A DNA stretch of 64,000 nucleotides from Moniliella sp. 'wahieum' (taxonomy: Eukaryota), in assembly GCA_003971905.1 (NCBI GenBank), contig RSEE01000057.1, positions 372,001 through 436,000 of the forward strand, written 5' to 3'. The position numbers and the translations under genes were made by a program. Each line of letters starts with the position of its first letter. Position 1 is the first letter of the stretch. Positions 37,424 to 53,756 of the stretch are shown piece by piece. The notes beneath the pieces are model-generated. The model did not search any database. It had not been told where the DNA came from and saw only the letters and a program-made list of their open reading frames with translations.

Positions 37424-40400
37424 TTAATTAGCATGGTACATGACGAGGGCGAGAAGCGCCGAGCGGATCCAAACGCCGTTCTTGACCTGGCGCCAGTAGG
37501 CCGCGTGTTCCGACAAGTCCACCTCCTCTGCCAACTCGTTAACACGGGGCAGCGGGTGCAGGACAATCATACTGGGCTTGGCACGGGTCAGGACATCATT
37601 GTTGACCACGTAGGCATCCTTGACAGCCTCGTACTCGGCCGGGTTGGTGAAGCGCTCCTTCTGCACCCGGGTGACATACAGCACATCCGTGGTCGGCAGT
37701 ACCTCCTGGAGATCCGTCGTCTCGTATTGCGCTACCCCACGCCGTGCTGCCTCTGCCTTCACCTCCCGCGGCATAGACAGCGCCACAGGCGAAACATAGT
37801 TGAGAGTCACACCGTACAGCGCCAGGAGGCGCACCAGGCTGTGTGTCGTCCGTCCATTCTTGAGGTCGCCCAGCAACGTGACCGTCAACCCGCTAACAGT
37901 ACCGAGCTCTTCGCGAATGGTAAAGACGTCCAGCAGCGCCTGAGTTGGGTGCTCTCCAACACCATCGCCGGCGTTGATGATGGGCACCTGCGAGGCCCGC
38001 GCCGCCTTCTGGGCCGAGCCCACCGCAGGGTGGCGCATGACGATAGCGTCGGTGTAGGAACCGAGCGTGCGTACCGTGTCCTCCAGCGTTTCGCCTTTGG
38101 CCACGGATGAGGTTTGACTCTTGACCGGGAGCACTTGGCCACCCAGACGGTACATGGCTGCCTCGAACGAGGACGAGGTGCGGGTTGATTCTTCGTAGAA
38201 GAGCGTGCACAGCACACGGTTGCGCAGAATGTTGAGCATCCCGTTCCGCTCCACACCCATCCGAATCTCCTGGGCCACCGAGAACAAGCTGTGGAGATCG
38301 TCGCGGGTAAACTGCTTCACCGAGAGAACATGGCGGCGGTTGAACGATGGGTGCGCCAGCTGCAACGCCGAAGCCGGGCTCAACTCGCGGGCGGGCTTTA
38401 GCGCAATCGGCTGCACCAGCTCACTCGCTGTATCTAACACTGGGGGCAGCGACACCTCGCTCTCAGCAATAGACACCCGACGAACGTGACGCGTAACATT
38501 GGATGCACCAAACGAGGCCGACACGTTCTGACCCACAGGGCCATGCGACACACTCTCACCATCAACAAAGACGGTCTTGCCCTTGTTCACCACACGAGAA
38601 ACGGCACCAATGGTGGCGCGCGTTGCTAGTGGCGACCAAACCTTGCCCGCTGGAAGCGGAGCGGCACGGTCAACATCCACCTGCACTTCCGCATCCAGCG
38701 GGGCGTTGAATCCAAAGATGTCGCGCGGGGCCTTGAAGAGCTTGTCGAAATGTCTTCCAGACGCAGGCGTTTCTGGTTGACTGCGTCGAGGAGAGAGAAG
38801 ATGCATACTCTCACGACACCCGACGGGCCGAGACGGAGTGGCCAAGATGGACACCCATAAAGTAGGGCAAGCTACCCACGGAGAGCACGTCAATGTTTGC
38901 CAGGTTCTCCACAGTGCGACCTGATCCGCCTCCGTCGGCAACACGTCGCCTTGGGGTAGCGCACGGTTGAAGAACAAAGCATAGATAGGGACGTCCACTG
39001 TCACCTTGAGCCCCTTGTTCTTGGCGGGAGTGTGATGAGGTTCAGGTGGCCGGATCAGTCAAGCCGGTAACGTGGATGGCACGTGCTGCAAGCTGGCCAA
39101 GAGAAGGATCGAGGCCAAGTCGTTGCCCTTGGCGCTCGTCACCAGAAGACGGTTCGTAGGCCACTCGGAAACATTGCTGCCACCGTAGCCAGTGGGATGG
39201 CCTCTCCGTTCGGATAAGAGGTCACAACGCACAGAGTGCGGGTACGCTCCGACAGTGCCGCCACTTCGTCTGGTTGGGCCGTGGCGGGCACGGCAAGCGC
39301 CAGCGACACATCGCAATAGCCGCTCCGGCCAACTTGCCCTCAATGATCGATAGAGTGTGCTCGTCTTGGATCGAGGTGGTGGTACCCAAGGCGAAAGGTG
39401 AACCGTGGTAAACCCGGCAGAGAGCGAGGCCTTGGTCAACTCAGCCAGCTCACGAGCGCCCCTTGGGGTCGGCAACGTCGGGTAGGAAGGCTCCAACATT
39501 GAACAAACCAGGGAACGTGTGGGTTTGGTGCGACGTTTTGAAGTCGATGCTCGAGATGGGGAAGTCCGAGCCAGCACGGCGGTAACGCGCCAGAGCTTCA
39601 ATGTAGAGTTGGCGTTCTTGACGTTGGTGATAAGCGGAATAGACCGGTCAATTGCCAGGCGACGGGCTTTGTACCCAATCGAAGTGAACGTAGGAGGACG
39701 ACGGTATTGTTCTTACTGGGAGCGAGATGAAGAGAGAAGAGACGCCTTGCGACAAGTGCGAAAGCACGAGTAGTTCGACATCTTGTTGTCGTCTCCTTCC
39801 AGTCCTTATCCTCGGGCAAGGCCTCGAGCTGGATGATGGGGATACCTTGCTCAGAGTAGAAGTCGGCTGTACCACTCGAGCCGTAGAGAGTGTAGCCCAG
39901 CTGGTGCAGCGTCCGTACGGACTGGACCAGCTCCTGCTTCTCGCTGAAAGATCCCACCGACAAGAGGACATTCTTTGTCGGTAATTTGAGGCCCGATGCG
40001 ATCATGCCCTTCAGGTACGCCTCGTACTTGTCGTGGCCGAAACAAGCAACCTCACCCGTTGAGGCCATCTCCACACCCAAGATCGGGTCGGCACCAGCCA
40101 AACGGCTGAACGAAAACTGCGGCACCTTGACACCCACGTACTCTTTAGGTAGGGTGATCTTGGGATACGGCTCAATGGGCAAGCCCAGCATCACTTCCGT
40201 GGCCATCTCGATCGCGTCGACACCTGTGACCTTGGAGACGAAGGGAAGGAGCGGGCAGCACGGACATTGCACTCATCACCTTAATCTCGTTGTTCTTAGC
40301 AATGAACTGGATGTTAAAGGGTCCTGTGACGTGGAGCGATTCGCAATCTTAGCCGTCGCCGCAGTGATGCGCCGCACCGTCTCAGGATCAAGATCCTGAG

Positions 40401-43400
40401 GAGGGAGGATAAGAGTAGCGTCGCCCGAGTGCACACCAGCATTTTCGACGTGCTCCGAGATGTAGTGCATGACCAGCTTGCCATCGCGAGCGACGGCATC
40501 CATCTCAATCTCCTTGGCACCCTCAAGGTACTTGGAAATGACGACCGGATGTTCTCGGTTAACGGCGGCGGCTTGGGAGAGGTAAGAGCTAAGGTCATCC
40601 GAAGAGTAAACCACGTTCATCGCTGCCCCAGACAGGACATATGACGGGCGGACCAAAACGGGATAGCCGAAGCGCTCACATGCAGAGTAGGCGTCATCGT
40701 ACGACGTGAGTTCCTTCCACATCGGCTGGTCCACACCAAGTTTGTCGAGCATACGCGAGAATTTGTACCGGTTCTCAGCCATGTCAATGTTCTCAGGCGA
40801 AGTGCCGAGCACCTTGACGTCTTGACGATGCAGGGGGAGCGCGATGTTGTTAGGGACCTGTCCGCCCATGGAGATAATCACGCCGCTCGACTGCTCAAGA
40901 TCATAGATGTCCAAGACCGTCTCGAGACTAATCTCGTCGAAATACAAGCGGTCCGCCTCGTCATAGTCTGTTGACACCGTCTCAGGATTGTAGTTGATCA
41001 TGACAGTCTTGTACCCGCCGCGTAGTGCGAACAGCACGCACAGCGCACCAGTCAAACTCAACACTGGAACCGATCCGGTATACACCGGAGCCAAGCACAA
41101 TGATCCCTTTGTCGTTGAAGTCCACATCGTGCTCGGTGGCATGATAGGTGGTGTAGAGGTAATTGGTATATGCCGGAAATTCGGCAGCGACTGTGTCGAT
41201 CTGTTTAACGAAGGGCATGATCCCCGTCTCCTTACGAACGCGGCGGACTGCAAGCTCAGTGCTGCCCATGCACTTAGCAAGCAGCTTGTCAGAAAAGCCG
41301 AGCTGCTTACCCGCCCGCAACTGGTCAGGGCTGAGCTGCGACAGTGTCTGCTTTGTGAACCATTGAGCAGCCTTAGTAATGCGCTCAAGCTTGTGAAGGA
41401 ACCAACGGTCAATCGAAGTGGCATCGTGAATCTTGTCAACCGAGTAGCCCTTGCCAAAAGCGTTGGCAATCGCAAAGATGCGACGGTCCGTGGGAACAGT
41501 AAGCTCTTGATCAATCTCATCGTCCTTGACCAAGTCGTTCTAAAAGAGAATGATAGGCGGGGGAAAAGTCAGTAATCAGGCCCAAAATAGATAGGATGAA
41601 AGGCAGCGCAAGCTTGAGGGATACGTACCGTGGCAAAGCCAGGGAAGGATGGGTCGATTGAACGAATTGCACGTGAATCGCTTCTTCAAAGGTGCGACCG
41701 ATTGACATACCTCGCCAACACTTCATCGACGAGCCCAGTGTGGACGAGACGCGAACAAACTTGCGCAGATCCCAGCGAGGGAACTTGCAGACCACATAGT
41801 CAAGTGACGGCTCAAAGCACGCCGAGGTTTTTTGGGTTACTGAATTGCGGATCTCGTTGAGGGGGATATTGAGACCCAACTTGGCAGCGATAAAGGCGAG
41901 CGGGTAGCCGGTGGCCTTGGACGCCAGTGCGACGAACGTGACAGACGGGCGTTGACCTCAATAATGCAGTACTCCTTGCTGTGAGGGTTGAGCGCATACT
42001 GGATTTGCACTCACCTACCACGCCCAAGTGGCGAATAACGTTGACAGCAGTGGTACGAAGCATGTTGTAATCCTCATCAGACAACGTTTGGCTCGGCGCG
42101 ACAACGATTGAGTCGCCGGTGTGAATTCCAAGTGGGTCAAAGTTCTCCATGTTGCAGACGGTGATGCAGTTGTCCTGCGTCACGAACAACTTCGTACTCA
42201 ACCTCCTTCCACCGCGCATCGACTTCTCCACCAGTACTTGCGGAGTTGGCAAACGCAGCCGTGCAGAGCTTCTGCAGCTCATCCACATTAGAGGCAAACC
42301 CGCTACCCAACCCACCAAGGGCAAATGCCGCACGAACAATCACTGGGAAGCCAATCTGCTTGGAAGCCGCCAGAGCCTCCTCCCAAGTCGTGGCCGAGGC
42401 CGAGGGAGCAACCTTCTCGTTAATTTGGGCCAGAGCCTTAGCGAATAGGTCACGATCTTCTGTCGTGATGATCGTGTCAATCGGAGTTCCAAGAATCGTG
42501 ACCCCCAAGGCAGTAGTTCATCCTTAATGGCAATACCCACGTTGAGGGCCGTCTGTCCACCAAATGTGACCGCAATACCGTCAGGCCGCTCGTGCTTGAT
42601 GACCTTCAAGACAAATTCGGGTGTGACTGGAACGAAATAAACCTTGTCGGCCAAACCGGCACTCGTTTGGATCGTAGCAATGTTGGGGTTGATAAGGACA
42701 GTGTAGATACCCTCCTCCTTGAAAGCCTTGATCGCCTGACTGCCCGAGTAGTCAAACTCTCCAGCCTGACCAATCGACAGACCGCCAGATCCAAGCACAA
42801 GAACCTTGCGCACATTACACGAGGGTGTGCCGCTTGGTTGTCCGCTTTCTTGCCCCGACAAAGGGAACGGGGGGAAGGGTCGGGGCAGGCGTCTTGGAAG
42901 CCGCCTTGACCGCGGCACAGTCAACCACGGAGCGGATGAACACATCAAACAGGAACTCCGTGTCGCGCGGGCCAGGAGCAGACTCTGGGTGGAACTGGAC
43001 CGAAAAGAAAGGGCCTGCGATGAGTAGATACCCTCGTTGGAGCCATCATTGGCATTTTGGAAGAGCTCATGCCAGCCATGAGGAAGAGAGTCGACGTTAA
43101 CGGCGTACCCGTGGTTTTGGGAGGTAATGTAACAGCGCCCGCTCAGAACATCAGTGCAGGGGATGTTGGCACCACGGTTACCAAATTTCATCTTTTCCGT
43201 TTTCGCACCTGCAGCGAGCGAAAGAAGTTGATGGCCGAGACAAATACCGAAGATGGGCACCACATCCTCGCCTTTGCGGGCAAGGAGTTTTTCAACGGTC
43301 TTAATAGTCGCACCGCACATGGTGGGGTCACCGGGCCGTTCGAAATAAACACACCATCAAAGGGCTCAGACTCCTGTGTCGTTACATCATAGTCCCACGG

Positions 43401-44426
43401 CACCACCTTGAGCTCAACCCCACGAGAGGTGAAGCAGCGAATCTGGTTGCGCTTCATACCCACGTCAATGGCAATAATCCGAAGAGGACGGCCGGAGGGG
43501 TGCAAAAGTTGACTGATAGCCGTACCTTTGGCATCGTTGGTGGCCGTTGTAGCCAGGGTAAAAAACTGAGGCTTGGTGAGGGAGACCTTGGCCACTAAGT
43601 TGGTGGCGTTGTTGTCGGTGTAGGGAATTTGCTCAAACTCGACGCGCCAAAGAGCATCAGCGTCACCAGCGAGGCCGGTCACAGGCTTGGCAGCAGGCGT
43701 TAGCGCAGGCGAGTCGGCAGCAATGTCTGCCTTGAGGGAACGCAGCGGATCTTTGGGAGAGGACGAAAAGTTCTGCCGAGCCAGCAGTTTGCCCAGCAGC
43801 GATCCACGGTCACGGATCTTTTGTGTAATAGCACGGGTGTCGATACCATAAATAGCAGGCACACCATTCTCGGTGAGCCACTGGCCGAGGCTCGACTGGG
43901 CCAAAAAGTGGGAGAAGTCCTCGCTGTAGTAGGCCACGACAGACCAGCGACGTGAATGCGGGATGACTCGAAGGGCAAGGCAAGCAGTTTTTGCGTCGCG
44001 GCATCTACTTCCTTGCGCGAAGGGACACCGTAGTTCCCCACAAGGGGGAATGTGAGCACAAGAATCTGGCCCTCGTACGAAGGATCGGTGAGGGACTCGA
44101 CGTAACCAACCATGCCTGGCCAAATAAGAGCAATTAGTACGGGCAGCAAGCAAAGCCAGAGATCGAAAGCAAAATGATGCACATACCTGTTTGGAAGACG
44201 CACTCGCCGCTGACGCTCTTAGAGGGAGCACCAAAGCTGAAGCCTCGGAAAGCAGTGCCGTCGGCAAGCTCCAAGACCATGTCCCCAGCATCGGCCGCAT
44301 GGGGAGCGTAAGGAGCCGGACGGGTGGCAGGCGGAGCAGGCCGGCAGTGAGCGTCGCCATGGCGGGCGCCGCTGTAGTTGCCGGTGCCGGCGCGGGAGCA
44401 ACGGCAGGAAGAGTGGAGGGGCTCAT
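37424..44426 (-). CDS. URA2: Multifunctional pyrimidine biosynthesis protein: glutamine amidotransferase, CPSase, inactive DHOase-like domain and ATCase; many frameshifts
   Basis: [119 protein letters not shown]. Introns at 44116-44186 and 41540-41628. The DHO-like region reads PGLFNVGAF and lacks the HxH motif. Confidence 0.97.
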
Positions 44427-45258
44427 GGCAAGTAGAGAGGGTAACCGGCGCGGTGGGGATGGAGGGCTTGTGAGGGGGCAACCTTCCTGGCAGGCCAAGT
44501 GTCCTACCAGGAGAGAGAGGAAAGAAGGCACGTCTCGCAACTCACTGGCTGTCCATTTATTACACGGAAAAAAACTCATCCGTCGGATGGGCAGAGCGGA
44601 ATTGGGGGAAAGCGGAGGCATGGCGCCAGTGTTCTCTTGTCCCGCCGGTCTCGCCTTGCTGCTGTGTGACGTGTGATGCATGTGATATCACATGTGACTG
44701 CCACATGTCAACCCGCCCAATGCCCCTGCGCAGGGGCAGTGTCACAGCCGAGGTGTGCTCAGCATAGCGCCAGCGTGTTGCCGCCTTTCCAACTTTAATG
44801 ACAGTAACCAACAAGAGAAGAGGAGGATCCTTTTATACACCCGCTGTGGGGTAGCAGAAACATTAGGACACGAAAGCTACTAAAGGCCCTACCTTCCTAC
44901 TTGCATTGCCACGCGCCACTCGCTACCTGTCGCCGACCGCTCGCCCCCAGCCCACTCGCTTCCCATAAACACTAGTGCAGCAAAAGTTGACATACCAATG
45001 TCATTAGTATGCGACACAAAAAGTCCCTGCCTGTTCCATATATGCCAGTCGCCCCCCACTGCCGCACCAACATCGTTCTCCGCTGACGGTACACTTTTAA
45101 TCAGCATCATCACCGCCTCCTCATAAGCGTTTGGCAGTCAGGATAGTATGTCCCGCCTGCCACCAGCATGGGCCCACAAAAGAAATGGTCATTATCATTA
45201 TACCAAAGCGATATGTGCACTGTGAGGCCCAACATCCATACGAGCGGCCCTGCCACGT

Positions 45259-45862
45259 TCACCACAGCTTCCTCCTCTCAAGACGCTCGGCGTGCTTAAT
45301 CCGCTGCGCAATCGACCATCGCTTGCGCCGTTCGTCACTGACCATGATCGCGTGCTCACGCGTACGCGGGGTGGCCGGAGCAACCATGCGAATCCACAGC
45401 GGCTTGACACTATACATACGTGCAAGGGCGTAAATGTTGTACTTGACCGGGTCCGACGTGCGCAAGCGCTGGATCGCAATGATGTCCGCAGCCGTCAACG
45501 GGGTCTGACGTGGGTTCACCGCCGGTTCCAACGGTGGGGCCACGCGTCGCGTAGGAGGTGGCAGCGGCGCATCGCACACCGAGTCATCTGTGCCAGTCCT
45601 GGCGTCCTTGCCATCCAGGATGGGCGACAGGACCATCGTCGTGCTCTCCGGCGGCTCCACCGACGGAGGTGGGCGCACCACAAACGTTCTCCTGTCGGCA
45701 GCCGGCTCCAGCCCGCTTTTTTGTCCTCTTCCAGAGGGTCGCGGCTACGCCGAACGGGGGTAACATGCGAATGACGCCCTGTCACGTGCGAGGTAGAGAA
45801 GGAACGACGCTGCCCCCTATCGGAACGGTACCCTTCAAGCTAGCGCGAGCCGCGGTGTGCAT
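45259..45862 (-). CDS. MRPL20: Mitochondrial large-subunit ribosomal protein mL58 (MRP-L20 family); apparently the C-terminal part of a fusion with SQR
   Basis: RDPL...LPTGE(T)FVVRPPPS...LPPP...LTAADIIAIQRLRTSDPVKYNIYALARMYSVKPLWIRMVAP...RW...RLERRKLW*. Preceded by presequence-like MHTAARASLKG...RRSFSTS. Confidence 0.8.
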
Positions 45863-47397
45863 CCCACGAGCCCCCGTCGGCGGGGCAAGCGTCTTGGGAT
45901 TGAGCCATCCCTTGGCCCCGGCCCAGTTACCCTTGACATCGAGCTGTAGTAGACGCGAGGGAAAAACTCTTTCTTCAGGTACCAAAACGCGCGCATGGGC
46001 TCGCCCTGGTCAATGCCAAACTTAGCGAACGACTCCTTGGGTTGCCCGCCGTATTTAAACTCAGCCAAAAGCACCTTGCCGTATTCGGTGATGAGCGGGC
46101 AAGAGGTATAGCCGTCGTACGCAGCAGGCAGCACCGTCGCACCAGGGTTTGCCATGGTGAAGAGCATGTTGGCTACCGTGACAGGCGCTTGAGCGGTAAT
46201 AGCAGCGTCGTCTTGGATGTGGGAGACGAGGATCACCGAGCGACCAAATGTTCTTGTACTTGGTGTGCTGCGTCGTGGCCGGATCGACATCAACAAACCC
46301 GCCTTGTTCAGCTGCCAGAGGGGAGTTCTTGATAAAGTCAAGTGGGCCCATGGGGGGCGATACATGCAACAGATCGTAGGAACGTTCCAACGAACCACCT
46401 TCGGGGGTGGTAAAAGTAGCCACCTTCTTTCCCGCATCGATCTTGACAAGGTTAGTGTTGAATAAACCCTCAACATGGCGTTCTTTGCGCAGCTCTTCCA
46501 ACACCGCACTGTACTTGGGGACACCGAACATGGTTGGCAACCCATCGAGGAAAGAGACCTTGACTCCCTTGGTGGGATCCGACGGAGAGAATTGGCCCGC
46601 CCGTTTCCAGTGGTCCAAAGCCATCCACATGATTTTTGAGGTGCTCCCGCGCACTTGATTACAGCAGCAGGTTGAGTAAAAATGGCCTGGCCTTTGGTGA
46701 GCGCCTCAATCGCTGGGAATACGTGAGGAACCGTGTTGTAGCCATAGATGCTAACCACACCGCTCTCCTTGGGTTGAGCCAAAGCTTCGGGAAGGCCTTC
46801 AATGGCATCCCAGCTGGTCTTGATGCCTGGGGCAACAACGAGCTGCTCGTATGAGATAGTTCGACCATCACGTGTCTTGATCTCGTTGGATTCGGGAGAA
46901 AAGGTGGAGACCGAGTCCCGCAAGTAATCGATACCCGCTGTCTTGCCAGCCACAGCTGAGGTGACGGTGAGCTCCTTCATACTCCGCCGACCCTCCCCGC
47001 GAGTGCGCACGCCACCGCCGACGAGAGTCCAGCCTGGCTGGTAGTCATGGAACTTGGCCGGGTCAACGACAAGAATGTCGGCAGCCCCCTTGGTGGGGAA
47101 GTACCCAGACTTGGCTACCTCCTTGGCAACGGCCTGGCCGGCAGTGCCGCCGCCCACAACAACAAGACGGTAAGCATGCTTGCGTGCACCGCTCGCGATG
47201 CTGGCAGCGGAAAAGGCATCGTCGGCGACGGTGGTAAGCGTGCGGTGTAGGAGGTGTCCAGGGGCGCAAAAGGTGGTGCGCGGGGAGAAGCAAACGCAGA
47301 GGCAGAGTGGAGTGTGCTCAGGGCCCGGGGAGAGAACAAGCGGGGAGCGTCGCGCCGAGCGCACTGCGAGCTGCAGCGGAACGAGCGAACCAGCCAT
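45863..47397 (-). CDS. Mitochondrial sulfide:quinone oxidoreductase (SQR/Hmt2-like); no stop codon of its own before the mL58 presequence
   Basis: VVVGGGTAG, HDYQPGWTLVGGG, IKCAGAPQKIMW, YDGYTSCPL, AEFKYGG.PKESF, LKKEFFPRVYY..M.KGNW. Arg/Ser-rich N-terminal targeting sequence. Confidence 0.93.
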
Positions 47398-48045
47398 GAA
47401 TACTGCCGGCGTGGTCGGCGTCGTCGTCGTTGCCGCCTAGGCTAGGGCAGGCCAAATTAGCTCAAGTATAGAAACGCCAGGCCCGCTTTAGCGTTTTCTC
47501 CTACGCCTCCCAGAAGAATTGCATTGATGTTCCGCTATTCCGCCGTCCAGACTCCTCGTTTTTTAATGACAGCTCAGCTACTGAGTCCGGAGCCATTGTA
47601 ATATTCCAGGGCTTTTACTTCGTTTGTGTTACGACGAGTAGCTAGCCCACTCCCACCCGCTCATCCTCTTTCCCACTGTGCTGCGCAGCACTGAGTTTCT
47701 GATGTCGCCACTGGAACCAAACGAAGAACATGTACTACAACTTTTGGTTCAAGGTTACTCTTCCGTGTCCCAGCGCAATCGCGCAACCAGACCCCTGTTG
47801 AAGCATGTACAATATGGAAATGCGGCGCCTCTCACATGCCAAGATTGGACTGACGGATAAGTGGGAATGAGTCCCAGGTCTGAACTCCAGTTCAAGAAAG
47901 TGAGGGTCTGTGGTGATGGAATAGAAATCGAGCGGCTGCGACTGCGGAGCCAAAGAGGAAAGCTTGCCCTTGATGCACTATGGGAGGTACGGGAAATGTG
48001 AGGTGCAGTATGGATAAAGGGCCAGAATGCCGAAGCATAATAGCT

Positions 48046-49121
48046 TTACTTTTTCTTGGTAGCCTTGAGCCGGATGGTCTCGTTGTTGACAAAGACACCT
48101 TTCCCCTAGAAACATCGTGTCAGTATGCATGGGCACGTCGCAAGGAATACAAAAGAATCGGACGTACCTTGTAAGGCTCAGGCGGACGCCACCGCCTGAT
48201 GGTTGCAGCGAACTCGCCGAGCAAGTCCTTGGTTGTACTCTTGAGGATGATACGAGTCTGAGAAGGCATAGACGCGACAATGCCCTTGGGGACCGGGATC
48301 AACACAGGGTGAGAGAAACCAAGACGAAGGTTGAGACGGGTACCGTTACGCTGACGATTGCTCATGATTGCCTTGCGGTTGTGGTAAGGAAGAATGTGAA
48401 GCACGTTGGTATTTTTCCGCGCGAGAGCCGCAATGCTGGAGGGGATACCTTCGCTCTCCAACTTGTAGTTGGCCAGACGTTCTTGGTACTTCTCCGCAGC
48501 GAACGGGTCCGGCTCGACCATGGCTCTGTATCCGACACCAACCAGGTTGATCACAGCAGAGTGCGACTCGGTCACACCAGTGATGGCGTTCTGGAGCAGC
48601 TGGCGAGTCAGACCCCACAGGGCATGGTTCTTGCGCTTCTCCACCTCGGTGACTCGGGTGGTCACCACACCGCTCTGGTTCTCCTCATCCTTTGACTTGG
48701 CGGCAATCGGAGGCGTAATGCTAAGACCCACACACTCGTACAACGGCACCACACACTCGCCCACCGGCCCCGAGACCACAATGCTGCGAGCACTGCGCAT
48801 GTCGGGTGGCAGACTGAGGAGGTCGGGTAGATCCCTGCGGGACACAGCGGCCACCTCGTATGCCTTGAGTGCCAGCGCAACAGGAGGAACGGACTTGGGT
48901 GCCACGACGCCATTCGTCTCAAGGATGCCCCCCGGAGGCAAGAGCGGTGGGGGGAGGTCGACAATCTTGAACGTGACGCCGACGGGAACGTGGATGGGAA
49001 GGCGGCCAATGTGGCTGTGGCGCACCGGACCCAGGCGTGCAGAGGGTGCAGCCAGAGTGCGGCCTAATGGGGTGATGGCACGGCCAAGCATGCTCCCCAG
49101 CCCAGTGCGAGGGGCGTGCAT
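48046..49121 (-). CDS. MRPL6: Mitochondrial ribosomal protein uL6m
   Basis: SHIGRLPI, GPVG, ALWGLTRQLLQNAITGV, LVGVGYRA, LRLGFSHPV, WRPPEPYK/GKGVF..ETIRLK. Intron at 48106-48167. Confidence 0.93.
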
Positions 49122-49585
49122 AGCAGCTCGATGGGGCGGGCGCAACGTCGGGGTGAACGAAGACGCGGTGGGCGCTTCTGCCGACGCAGGAGAAGCCCCA
49201 CCCGTTTTCTTCCACACCGGAATGAGCGCCTCCATTCCGCCCGGGCCACCAGCAAGGAAAGCGTGGAATCGGTATGGGCTGACGTAATGCGCGTCCGACT
49301 TGTCCGGAGCGAAGCGGGGAGACGGCGTCGCCAGGGACTGGGGGCAGCACCAGCGCAGTGTCGCCAGATGCTCGATGGGGGACTGTCACTGAACGATCAT
49401 CGACCGCGGTCACCGGTCGACGGCCGGCGATCATTGCTTGTGGGCACGGGCCATCCACCCCATTGATGGCATCGGTTCGATGATCAATGCCTGGCTGGCA
49501 CGCATGGCTCTGGCCCGCATTGTTGGCCCACTACTCGCCCTCGCTGCGCGCCCACCGCCTCTGCCTCTCCTCTGCCTCCACCACC

Positions 49586-52500
49586 ATGCCGTCCCCGCCG
49601 TACCCCGTCCTGTCGACCGACGAGGCCCGCCCTGTGCGTGGCCTCCCCATCCGCGGCGTCCGTGAGCGCCGCGTAGGCGAGTTTGTCGGCGGGCAGTACG
49701 CCGACTACAACCTCTCGTCCCTCCTCTTCGAAGCACGCACCGACGACAAGGCTTACATCCGTCTTTCCCGCTGGATCCTGAGCCCTGGCTCCACCCTAAC
49801 CCAGAGGGAAAGGGCGGCGATGTCATCAACAAGCCCCCTTTCTCTGAAGCGGTCAAGCAGACGTACAGCGACACCAAGAAGGGCACCACCTTTGGTCCCA
49901 GCTGGACCAACCACTGGGTCAAGCTGTCGTTGACAGTGCCCCCGCAGTGGGCTCATCGCGAGCCTGGCTCCGTCCAACTCGAGTTCGACCCGGATGCGAG
50001 GCGATGATCTTTGACACCAAGGGTCTCCCCCTGCAAGGCATTACCGGTGGCAACGCGGCCAACCGTCGCGTCGACTTCCCCCTGACAGAGGCCATGTTGG
50101 AGCCGGGCACGGTCACTACGTTTTATATCGAGATCACCGCCAACGCCATGTTTGGTCTTCCTAGCGTGGGTAATGGTGGCGACCCTGACCCAAACCGGTA
50201 CTTTAAGTTGCTGTCGGCCGACCTGGTACTCAAGCGGCTGGAGGCCTGGCGCCTCATGTGGGACTTTAGTCTTCTGCGCGGTGCCGTCGATTGGGTGGAC
50301 CGTGACACAGTCCTACAAAACAAGGCTTTGTGGGTAGCCAACGAGATTCAGAACACCTTCCGCCACTCGGATGTGACTTCGATTGCACGCTGTCGGAAAC
50401 TAGCTCAGGAGGTGCTGGGATCCAAATGGGATGCCAAGCCCGACGGGGTCTGGGAGGAGCCGACTAGCACCAAAACCACCGTGTGGGCTATGGGGCACTG
50501 CCATATCGATTCGTGCTGGCTCTGGCCCAAGAAAGTGACCGAGCAAAAGGTTGCTCGCTCTGGGCTACACAGCTTTCTCTGATGGAGCGCTACCCCGAAC
50601 ACCGCTTTGTTGCCTCGCAGGCGGCGCAATTTGACTGGCTCGAGCGACTTTACCCTTCTCTGTTTGAGAAGCTCAAAGGCTTTATCAGTTCGGGTCAGTT
50701 CTTGCCCATTGGGGGCACGTGGATTGAGAACGATGCCAACATCCCCTCGGGTGAGGCTTTTGTTCGCCAATTTATCCACGGCCAGCGCTTCTTCCTATCG
50801 CGCTTTGGTCAGCGGTGCAAAATCTTCTGGCTGCCCGACACATTTGGTTACAATGCCCAGATTCCGCAATTGGCTCGCTCGGCGGGACTCGACTACTTTT
50901 TCACTCAAAAGTTAAGCTGGAACAACATTAACCACTTCCCGCATAACACGGTCATGTGGGAGGGTCTGGATGGTAGCCAGATCATCACCCATTTTTCGCC
51001 AGTGGAAAACTACGACTCCATGTGCCGTCTGGACGACATCACCAAGTGCATCAAGAACAGTATGTATTCTTTTAAAGTTATTTCATCATTTGTTCGCGAT
51101 ACTGACCTCGGGGGTGCAGACGGCAACTTGGACGTTCAGCCTAACGGGCTTCTCCTCTTTGGTTATGGCGATGGTGGTGGCGGTCCTACCGAGACCCATA
51201 TCCAAAATCTTCGCCGGGCTCGAGCAGCGCATAATAATGGGTACACGGATATCCCCAAGATTAAGCTGGCACATTCCGTGCAAGACTTTTACGATGAGGT
51301 GCTGCGCGTGACGGACGGGGGGAAGCGCCTGCCTACTTGGCAGGGCGACCTCTACCTCGAGTTCCACCGGGGCGTGTACACGTCGCATGGGAGCATCAAG
51401 CGATGGAACCGCAAGTTGGAGATTAAGTTGCACAACGTCGAGTGGGCAGCTACGCTCGCGTTGGCTAGCCCCACTTACGAGTATCCTAAGAAGACACTGG
51501 ATGAACTTTGGGAGGGGCTACTCTTCAATCAGTTCCATGACATTTTGCCGGGTTCCTCAATCCGCATGGTCTATGAGGATGCAGAGAACGATTATGCTTC
51601 GATCGATAAAAGGGCAGACAAGCTGCTGGCATCCGCTCAAGACGTCTTGTTTGCCACCTCGGCCTTGAGTACCGGCCTGTCGATGGAGACCCTCTCGCTC
51701 GGCGACGGAGCAGGCTCAATTGTTGCCCTTAACACACTGGCCATCCCGCGCAATGAACTTGTTGCTGTTCCTCTTCACAAGTACCCGGGAGTACAAGCGG
51801 CGATCCAGATGGGTGGGGCGCAACTTGTTTCGACCCCGCAGAATCAGATGGCCCTGGTCCCCATGCACGACGCCGATGGGACTGGAGTGGCGTCCTTTTC
51901 GCTCGGTCATGCGCAACAATTGGCTGCCAAGGTCCATCGCAATGGGGCGACGGCCTTCCATGACGTCCAGTCCGAAAGCTATGTGCTAAGCAACGACGTG
52001 CTCAAGGTGGTTGTCAAGAGTGGCCGGATCTCGTCGGTGTACGACCAAGTGCTGAAGCGGGAGTTGCTGCGCCCGGCCAGACGGCAGGGCTTTCGATTGC
52101 GGAGGACTACCCTCCCTCGTACGATGCTTGGGAGACAGAGGTGTATGCGCTGGACACACAGGAGCCGATTGCGTTTGACTCGGTCGCAGTGCACACGGAG
52201 CAAGGCCCGTTGCGCGCTTCGTTGGTGGCGCAGGCCCGCTTTGGGCAGAGCAAGGTGAGCGTCAAAATGTCGCTTGATGCAAGTGCGATGCAGATGACGT
52301 CCAAGGGTCGTACGCCGTTGGTTCTGGACTTTGAGGTAGACTGGCAAGAAAAGCACCGATTCCTTCGGTTTGAGGTACCGACCAACTTGGTGGCCGACAA
52401 TGCCGCGTACGAGACGCAGTTTGGCATTACCCACCGGCCCACGGGCCGCAACACAAGTTGGGATGCAGCCAAGTTTGAAGTATGCGCTCACCGCTTTGTC

Positions 52501-53071
52501 GATTTGTCCGAGGCAGGCTATGGAGTTGCGCTACTGTCCGAGTCCAAGTACGGCTTTTCGGTAGAGGGGGGCACGATGCGGGCTTCGCTGCTCAAGGCAG
52601 GTACCTATCCGGATGCTCACCAAGACGAGGGGAAGCACATCTTTTCCTTGGCGGTACTGCCACATGTGGGGCCGATGGAGGACCCTGCGAGCGGGGTGAT
52701 TCACGCGGCGCGCGCGTTCAACAACCCGTTGGTTCCTTCGCATTCTGCCAACTCAAGCCTCGCCAGCGGCTTGGGTCTGCACCTCGAATCGGACACGGGC
52801 ACTGTCGTGCTCGATACCATCAAACGTGCTGAAGCTGACTTCTCCTACCACCACACACCTGCCTCCGGCAAGAAGACTGTGGTGGCTCGCTTCTATGAAG
52901 CGGCGGGTGGCCACGCACACACCAGTTTGTATGCGTGGAGCCGGAGTGCTGAAAGCGTCAACTGCGTCAATTCTGGAGGATACAGAATCGGAGCTGGCGC
53001 CGTACCATGGCGGGTACCAGCTTTCCTTCCGCCCATACGAGGTGAAGACGGTCGTTTTCGAACTGGCCTAA
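49586..53071 (+). CDS. AMS1: Glycoside hydrolase family 38 alpha-mannosidase; frameshifted
   Basis: FGPSWTNHW, GHCHIDSCWLWP, FWLPDTFGY, FFTQKLSWN, FGYGDGGGGP, LYLEFHRG, NQFHDILPGS, NTSWDAAKFEV. Intron at 51060-51119. Confidence 0.96.
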
Positions 53072-53756
53072 CACCTTGGGATACGTTGTGGACCCCACAC
53101 AGACAATATATGAAGTTTGCTTGTTGGAGAGCGGGACTCATCCATTGCGGATGGGTTTGTTTTGCGATGATTGCCAGATAGTATTGCGTTCAGCGTACGT
53201 TCATCAACCCACGTCGCCCGTCGCCGCCCCCGGCCCTTCTCACAGCCACAACTATTACCACGGCAACAAGCATTATGCAAGCAGACCAGAACATCGCGTC
53301 CTCTGACTGCGGGGGCTGTCAACTGGGCAACCAACACCACCCAGGGTAATTGGCCAGCCACTACATGGATGAGTAGGCCATGGGGGTCCAGGAATTGAAG
53401 CTTGACGCGACAAGGAGAGCTTGAACGGGTGGGATTGACATATTGACAAGCGGGCCAGTCCTTGCCAGCCCACACCCGCTCTCTCGTCACGCGTCACGTG
53501 TCATGCATCAGCAGGCATCTAGTGCGTTGCTGGAGTTGGCTTCGACGACTGGAAAGCGGAACCGGCCGTGGGGTGGCGGAATGCACTGATCAGGCAATCG
53601 CTTGGGCGTGATTGATGATCGATGATTGATGACGAAGAAGAGAGCTATAATTAGGGCAGCGGCAATGGCATCGGCTAAGCGCATCATCAGCACCGCCGGC
53701 CCACTCACCCACCCACACCACCCACTCCGCAACCCGCCTCCCCGTCCGTGCCCACC

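Follow-up and report, generated by a model that had tools for sequence, protein, structure and literature searches.

A 64,000-nucleotide stretch of contig RSEE01000057.1 from Moniliella sp. 'wahieum' (hereafter the window, within which all positions are counted) carries on its minus strand, at 47397-45259, a gene for sulfide:quinone oxidoreductase (SQR; Pfam Pyr_redox_2) that is continuous, without a stop, into the mitoribosomal protein mL58 (Pfam MRP-L20). We put at about 0.9 the probability that SQR-mL58 is a genuine gene fusion giving one fused precursor, and at about 0.6 the probability that the mitochondrial processing peptidase cleaves this precursor. In 16 further sequences, read as 13 lineages, both domains lie in one unbroken frame; the window is collinear with these fused frames, and a motif at the junction of the two halves is conserved.

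The SQR reading frame runs on into mL58

The SQR C-terminus, KGNWAGAKGW, lies at 45934-45905 (minus strand), and its frame remains open from 45905 through LNPKTLAPPTGARGMHTAARASLKGTVPIGG, as a first-pass annotation of this DNA had described, until it meets its first stop at 45784-45782. The same annotation had proposed that one extra base in a run of five G (G5, 45817-45813) would join the SQR frame to mL58. This addition yields PIGGQRRSFSTSHVTGRHSHVTPVRRSRDPLEED, and the joined product is collinear with the uninterrupted SQR-mL58 frames of relatives. Translation of the mL58 frame (45839-45516) agrees with the earlier statement that no Met stands ahead of RDPL. As had been noted, 165 bases separate 45905 from the D of RDPL (45740). 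Taken alone, this is a weak argument that no room is left for a terminator and a promoter, since genes stand very close together in related compact genomes (seen at metagenome locus L004). The parts of the gene are listed below; P0001, P0040 and P0043 are relatives used for alignment.

47236-47397, minus strand: start codon (ATG 47397-47395), then a basic N-terminal leader of some 54 residues with R-T-L-T-T at its end; from translation and alignment to P0043 and P0001 at their N-termini.
45905-47235, minus strand: SQR domain, ending KGNWAGAKGW, in four frame pieces in the assembly; from Pfam Pyr_redox_2 and the alignment of P0043 to human SQOR.
46633-46637, minus strand: A5 run, where relatives (PQKIMW) imply A6; from frameshift-aware alignment.
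45753-45904, minus strand: interdomain spacer of about 50 residues (LNPKTLAPP...HVTPV) with zero acidic residues; from translation and spacer composition.
45854-45868, minus strand: upstream R-G-M-H-T motif, including ATG 45862-45860; from motif conservation in the clade.
45813-45817, minus strand: G5 run (C5 on the plus strand), likeliest site of the missing junction base; from alignment to P0040 or P0001.
45789-45806, minus strand: R-S-F-S-T-S, candidate processing-peptidase motif, 18 residues ahead of RRSRDP; motif kept in fused sequences.
45262-45752, minus strand: mL58 (MRP-L20) part, from RRSRDPL to KLW, with its stop at 45261-45259 and a frame break at 45688/45687; from Pfam PF12824.

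The leader at 47236-47397 is presumed from its sequence to be the import presequence of the whole precursor, and its extent is approximate.

Identity of the two halves

Pfam PF07992 scored above its cut-off on the first frame piece of the window, and the dinucleotide-binding motif VVVGGGTAG is present. The relative P0043 aligned with human SQOR (chain 6mp5_A) with an E-value of 1e-75, covering chain residues 3-398 of 413 and reaching as far as the C-terminal KGNWAGAKGW motif. Two Cys residues, in KCAGAPQK and YTSCPL, which we take to be catalytic, were invariant in 15/15 fused relatives, and both are found in the window. By sequence similarity, the upstream half is identified as a eukaryotic SQR of the SQOR/Hmt2 type. 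The SQR part also matched ATPTT1 (chain 6ynv_e; entries 6ynv, 6ynx, 6yny and 6ynz) with an E-value of 2e-22. If ATPTT1 is a ciliate ATP synthase subunit, as we presume, it would represent a further SQR-like fold recruited into a mitochondrial machine.

For the downstream half, PF12824 scored 74 bits on 45744-45262 (cut-off 30.4; E 2e-20), covering profile positions 24-164 of 164. Profile A1 matched the mL58 chains of mitoribosome structures from yeast (5mrc_a and 3j6b_a, E ~3e-17) and Neurospora (6ywe_a, E 2e-11). These matches identify it as mitoribosomal protein mL58. The yeast chain has been deposited both as 195 and as 177 residues, and this N-terminal offset of 18 residues fits a removed presequence. 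In published work, mL58 is placed within the membrane-facing protuberance of the yeast large subunit (PMC7947838, PMC11345376) and in an early nucleation site of large-subunit assembly (PMC11345376).

Frame breaks in the window and state of the assembly

Frame breaks were placed with a self-written frameshift-aware alignment of the window against the intact relative P0040; an ordinary tblastn search of the window with P0001 and P0040 as queries gave one long single-frame alignment and did not locate them. Six one-base additions were required: near 46637-46633 (A5), at 46232/46231, at 46206/46205, at 45937/45936, within 45813-45841, and at 45688/45687. Three sites had been flagged previously (45813-45817, 45937 and 45687); six additions are needed rather than three. 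All six deficits shift the frame in one direction, and each occurs where relatives hold one more base of the run. One residue (Leu of SSSLPTSKT) was left unmatched near 46231 in the P0040 alignment. At the junction, sequence alone (alignment to P0040 or P0001) allows the shift to be placed anywhere in 45813-45841; the G5 run is the likeliest position.

Other genes of the window are broken in a similar way. A CAD/URA2-like gene (37427-44687, minus strand; CPSase small chain, GATase, CPSase large chain, ATCase) is spread over eight or more overlapping pieces in different frames, a gene for a GH38 alpha-mannosidase (50468-53178, plus strand) is split in two, and the breaks in both genes fall inside Pfam domains. 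Because these unrelated neighbours are likewise broken mid-domain, the breaks in SQR-mL58 are attributed to consensus errors of the assembly and not to gene decay. Frequent one-base deletions seem to be present across the whole window.

Fused SQR-mL58 proteins in Ustilaginomycotina

The 161-residue mL58 part, used as query in an exhaustive HMMER search against 1.84 billion proteins, returned 39 matches. The top match was a 730-residue protein, aligned over residues 590-730 with 74% identity, in which a full SQR is followed by a spacer and then by mL58. When longer proteins were searched with an mL58 profile, PF12824 and PF07992 occurred together in 10/10 matches; an earlier search had found both domains in three of four. 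The 16 further sequences consist of 13 predicted proteins and three metagenome loci read from DNA. The first-pass annotation had suggested searching related fungi for the combination of Pyr_redox_2 and MRP-L20, and named examples of fused proteins come from Tilletiaria anomala, Malassezia vespertilionis, Jaminaea rosea and J. pallidilutea, all of them Ustilaginomycotina.

The window could be aligned end to end with intact fused proteins, giving 572 identities in 776 columns with P0040 (six deficits allowed) and 537 in 733 with P0001. Both alignments extend across the spacer, with MHT[A/S]AR and QRRSFSTS in register. A metagenome scan with the protein P0002 yielded seven loci. In four of them (L001-L004), the two domains share one stop-to-stop frame of 635-668 codons, and for L001 and L004 Pfam confirmed the presence of both. 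Contig ends truncate L005 and L006, and L007, a chance-level match from which the domains are absent, was discarded. The neighbours at L001 and L004 (an MFS transporter, a copper-fist factor and a Syf1-like protein) are unlike those in the window, so the SQR and mL58 halves remain joined while their surroundings change.

Three further searches added no fused protein. A metagenome scan with the narrow alignment A2 gave 100 matching stretches, among which there was no relative; a word-indexed search for mL58 relatives of 88-282 residues gave 130 candidates, none significant; and the ESM Atlas, queried with the C-terminal part of P0043, returned stand-alone MRP-L20 clusters only, with scores <0.8.

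Some individual records deserve mention. P0002 (168 residues, metagenome source) holds the mL58 part only, yet is named 'sulfide:quinone oxidoreductase' by its source; its start, M-R-L-F-S-T-T, coincides exactly with the junction motif. Truncated calling of a fused gene may have produced it, and fused relatives may be where its name came from. In P0004 (214 residues), mL58 starts with ...GHMGWTKGF, resembling the SQR C-terminal KG.W.GPKGF, and two R-x-F motifs follow; an intron or the gene caller may have cut a fused gene, with this protein as its tail. P0042 from Asterophora parasitica (428 residues) combines glutathione S-transferase domains with MRP-L20 and has R-T-Y-T-S at the junction; this annotated protein is either a merged gene model or a second mL58 fusion that arose independently, here in an agaricomycete.

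The junction carries a nearly acid-free spacer with a conserved motif

We compared the junctions of 17 sequences, namely the window (with X at each break), three loci and 13 proteins. The spacer varied from 19 to 57 residues, with the frame kept in 17/17. A motif R-x-F-[S/A/M]-[T/S]-[S/T] was present in 17/17 and preceded R..[R/K]DP by 15 residues in 14 of the 17 and by 18 in the other three; in an alignment of 15 relatives that excluded the window (A3), the R, the F and the third-following S were invariant columns. Asp and Glu made up 5 of 663 spacer residues (0.75%) compared with 9.6% elsewhere in the proteins (binomial P 1.6e-22), and Ser/Thr made up 26% compared with 15%. The linker had been described as free of acidic residues, Ser/Thr-rich and basic from the window alone, with two motifs resembling processing-peptidase sites. 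Across the set the spacers have a presequence-like composition, the R-x-F pattern of RRSFSTS recurs throughout, and the upstream motif recurs, as R-x-[MLIF]-H-[TS], in 7/7 sequences of the clade of the window and Tilletiaria. A second R-x-hydrophobic motif lies further upstream in 11/17 spacers. No Met occurs in 10/17 spacers. Within the upstream motif Met is kept only in the window and P0001, the residue matching the window's Met at 45862 being L, I or F in five of the six closest fused relatives. Since this Met varies among the closest relatives, ATG 45862 was ruled out as a conserved internal start.

Comparison of 22 junction codons between L001 and L002 showed 8 identical, 10 synonymous and 4 non-synonymous codons, which points to selection on the junction reading frame; in the one pair tested, the junction is under purifying selection. 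A crude presequence filter (acid-free 20-mers with >=4 R/K), which reflects composition only and is not an internal mitochondrial targeting signal-like (iMTS-L) profile, was passed at the junction in 17/17. The processing peptidase follows a rule of arginine at position -2 or -3. Presequence-like segments with peptidase motifs at the junction are a hallmark of cleaved composite precursors (PMC8734313).

In stand-alone mL58 proteins, a basic leader headed by Met closes with R-x-[F/Y]-[S/A] shortly ahead of DPL, as seen in Acaromyces ingoldii (XP_025375442.1, 198 residues), Hydnum rufescens, Tulasnella and further sequences. Because these leaders end in a similar motif, the spacer of SQR-mL58 looks like the retained end of a presequence from a formerly separate mL58 gene. 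In P0066, a longer frame from an Acaromyces relative, no SQR was found upstream of the mL58 start.

Proposed processing of the precursor

We infer import as one chain and subsequent cleavage, with the mitochondrial processing peptidase as the responsible enzyme. One mRNA with one frame would encode, in order, an N-terminal presequence, a complete SQR, a short acid-free spacer and mL58. The precursor of ~710 residues would enter the matrix by means of its N-terminal leader; the processing peptidase would remove the leader and cut at the conserved R-x-F-S/A, possibly followed by Icp55 trimming, and in many lineages an additional cut may take place at the second upstream R-x-hydrophobic site. The expected products are SQR and an mL58 that starts close to S-T-S...RRPRDPL, and the two would be made at a fixed 1:1 ratio. 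The C-terminus of SQR, a membrane-bound enzyme, would need to face the matrix. That the fusion links sulfide oxidation to mitoribosome supply is a speculation of the first-pass annotation.

Several observations weigh against fusion followed by cleavage. The junction frame of the window itself depends on an inferred missing base in a noisy assembly. The fused relatives came from searches that targeted long proteins, and several of the 17 sequences are closely related to each other and hence do not amount to 17 independent cases. The fusion is not universal in its clade, where four stand-alone mL58 proteins, including that of Acaromyces, stand among the fused rows of the mL58 tree. Met is present in 7/17 spacers. 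With regard to cleavage, the evidence consists of crude composition and motif tests; the crude filter applied to the N-terminus was labelled as passing in 12/17, and the leader of the window did not pass. In principle, R-x-F-S-T-S could belong to mature mL58 instead of marking a cleavage site.

Alternative explanations

The fusion might be real and its protein wholly or partly uncut, so that mL58 would sit in the mitoribosome with SQR attached as a bifunctional protein, an arrangement we hold to be unlikely. SQR is bound to the membrane. With mL58 located in the membrane-facing protuberance (PMC7947838, PMC11345376), attachment of the two is not obviously impossible. An uncut fraction could conceivably let SQR anchor this protuberance through the mL58 tail as a new ribosome-membrane tether; we give this idea little credence, and if true, mitochondrial translation or the early assembly of the large subunit could come under the direct influence of sulfide or quinone redox state. 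An uncut protein is opposed by the invariant R-x-F-S/A at a fixed distance, the presequence-like spacer and the similar motif that closes stand-alone mL58 presequences, all of which a retained cleavage site predicts, and by published composite precursors with such junctions, which are cleaved (PMC8734313). Production of both fused and SQR-only products, for example through internal polyadenylation or another transcript variant, would follow the precedent of S. pombe aco2, for which an mRNA truncated by internal polyadenylation is described (10.1101/2019.12.16.879015). Such a dual output fits all sequence data here and strikes us as quite improbable. By eye, the GC-rich junction has no A-rich or AATAAA-like stretch, a weak counter-argument because fungal poly(A) signals are loose.

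It is very improbable that two separate proteins are made, with SQR ending at 45784-45782, mL58 beginning at ATG 45862 with a presequence of its own, by an internal start or from a bicistronic message, and the apparent continuity being an artefact. The peptide after ATG 45862 is basic and hydroxyl-rich, P0001 keeps the Met, and the assembly has too many indels for frames to be read directly. However, an mL58 beginning there would still require the same one-base correction, the SQR frame contains no stop ahead of this ATG, the Met is replaced in most of the closest fused relatives and lacking from most spacers, as given above, and intact relatives at ~74% identity are fused. The six frame breaks in 2.1 kb could also be taken as signs of a decaying pseudogene, or of programmed frameshifting at the G run. 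This is scarcely credible, as every break is a one-base homopolymer deficit in the same direction, unrelated neighbour genes are broken mid-domain alike, and the protein is highly similar to its relatives with no stop within any piece; the pseudogene was rejected on these grounds. We thus retain a genuine SQR-mL58 fusion, probably cleaved at the junction, as the preferred reading.

Distribution and origin of the fusion

In a tree of the mL58 part, the 17 fused rows and the 4 stand-alone rows mentioned above formed a clade with 100/100 support, and 13 other stand-alone rows, including agaricomycete proteins, fell outside it. The window grouped with P0001 and P0043 (100/100), within a clade that also contains the Tilletiaria protein (99/94), and L001, L002 and L004 grouped with Malassezia vespertilionis (97/86). 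The backbone of the tree was unresolved: three changes of the 'fused' label were needed on it, of which well-supported branches force only one. A single origin, several origins and later fission are all compatible with this tree.

Relation to known composite precursors

The analogues cited in the first-pass annotation are in print (PMC8734313; 10.1101/2019.12.16.879015). The handful of composite precursors listed in the former consists of Arg5,6, Atp25, Etp1, Rsm22-Cox11, SPAC22A12.08c and rice RPS14, with a presequence-like segment and a peptidase motif at each junction (PMC8734313). SQR-mL58 joins this known class by its sequence features and introduces no new principle. Among the closest analogues is S. 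pombe Rsm22-Cox11, in which one precursor likewise combines a mitoribosomal protein with an unrelated inner-membrane protein across a presequence-like junction with a peptidase motif (PMC8734313). The partners differ, and the ribosomal protein comes first there, whereas the enzyme comes first in SQR-mL58. Processing of Rsm22-Cox11 has reportedly been studied experimentally; that of SQR-mL58 is predicted from sequence. S. pombe Aco2 shares with SQR-mL58 an N-terminal enzyme, a C-terminal mitoribosomal large-subunit protein and conservation in one fungal lineage, but the enzyme and the ribosomal protein are different ones, and a truncated enzyme-only mRNA and several cellular locations are described for Aco2 (10.1101/2019.12.16.879015). 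Unlike Aco2, SQR-mL58 keeps a clear presequence-type cleavage motif at its junction. In Atp25 and Arg5,6 of S. cerevisiae, the processing peptidase makes internal cuts where the junctions resemble presequences (PMC8734313), and Atp25 is cut three times with release of a ribosome-binding protein (PMC5063612). The two R-x-hydrophobic motifs in 11/17 spacers of SQR-mL58 are an Atp25-like feature; the proteins are unrelated, and for Atp25 and Arg5,6 cleavage has been demonstrated in vitro and in vivo. Stand-alone mL58 (yeast MRPL20; Acaromyces XP_025375442.1) has the MRP-L20 domain, the R-x-[F/Y]-[S/A] motif and then a basic N-terminal tail in common with the fusion, but there the motif closes a Met-led presequence, whereas in SQR-mL58 it lies ~500 residues into the protein.

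No description of an SQR-mL58 fusion was found in a literature search that had subscription journals and supplements outside its reach. Public records do show the architecture, though under generic names, and labels such as "FAD/NAD(P)-binding domain-containing protein" or "sulfide quinone oxidoreductase" conceal mL58 in these species. With SQR-mL58 the class gains a composite precursor that is conserved in several orders of Ustilaginomycotina, with Malassezia, the dominant yeast of human skin, among its carriers. If no second mL58 copy exists, species with a Met-free spacer would have no evident source of mL58 other than the fusion; and if the fusion is the sole source of mL58, mitoribosome biogenesis would depend on the expression and correct processing of the precursor of a sulfide-detoxifying enzyme. 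The junctions (19-57 residues, one or two motifs) also form a natural series for the recognition of internal sites by the processing peptidase.

Surroundings of the gene

Eight reading frames on the opposite strand or downstream contained no Pfam family, and no Rfam family was found in 44600-48200. The adjacent upstream gene (48123-49385, minus strand) has a Ribosomal_L6 domain after a long N-terminal extension. A uL6m-type neighbourhood is not conserved at L001 or L004. In the window, this gene probably encodes mitoribosomal uL6m, so that two mitoribosomal large-subunit genes would adjoin here.

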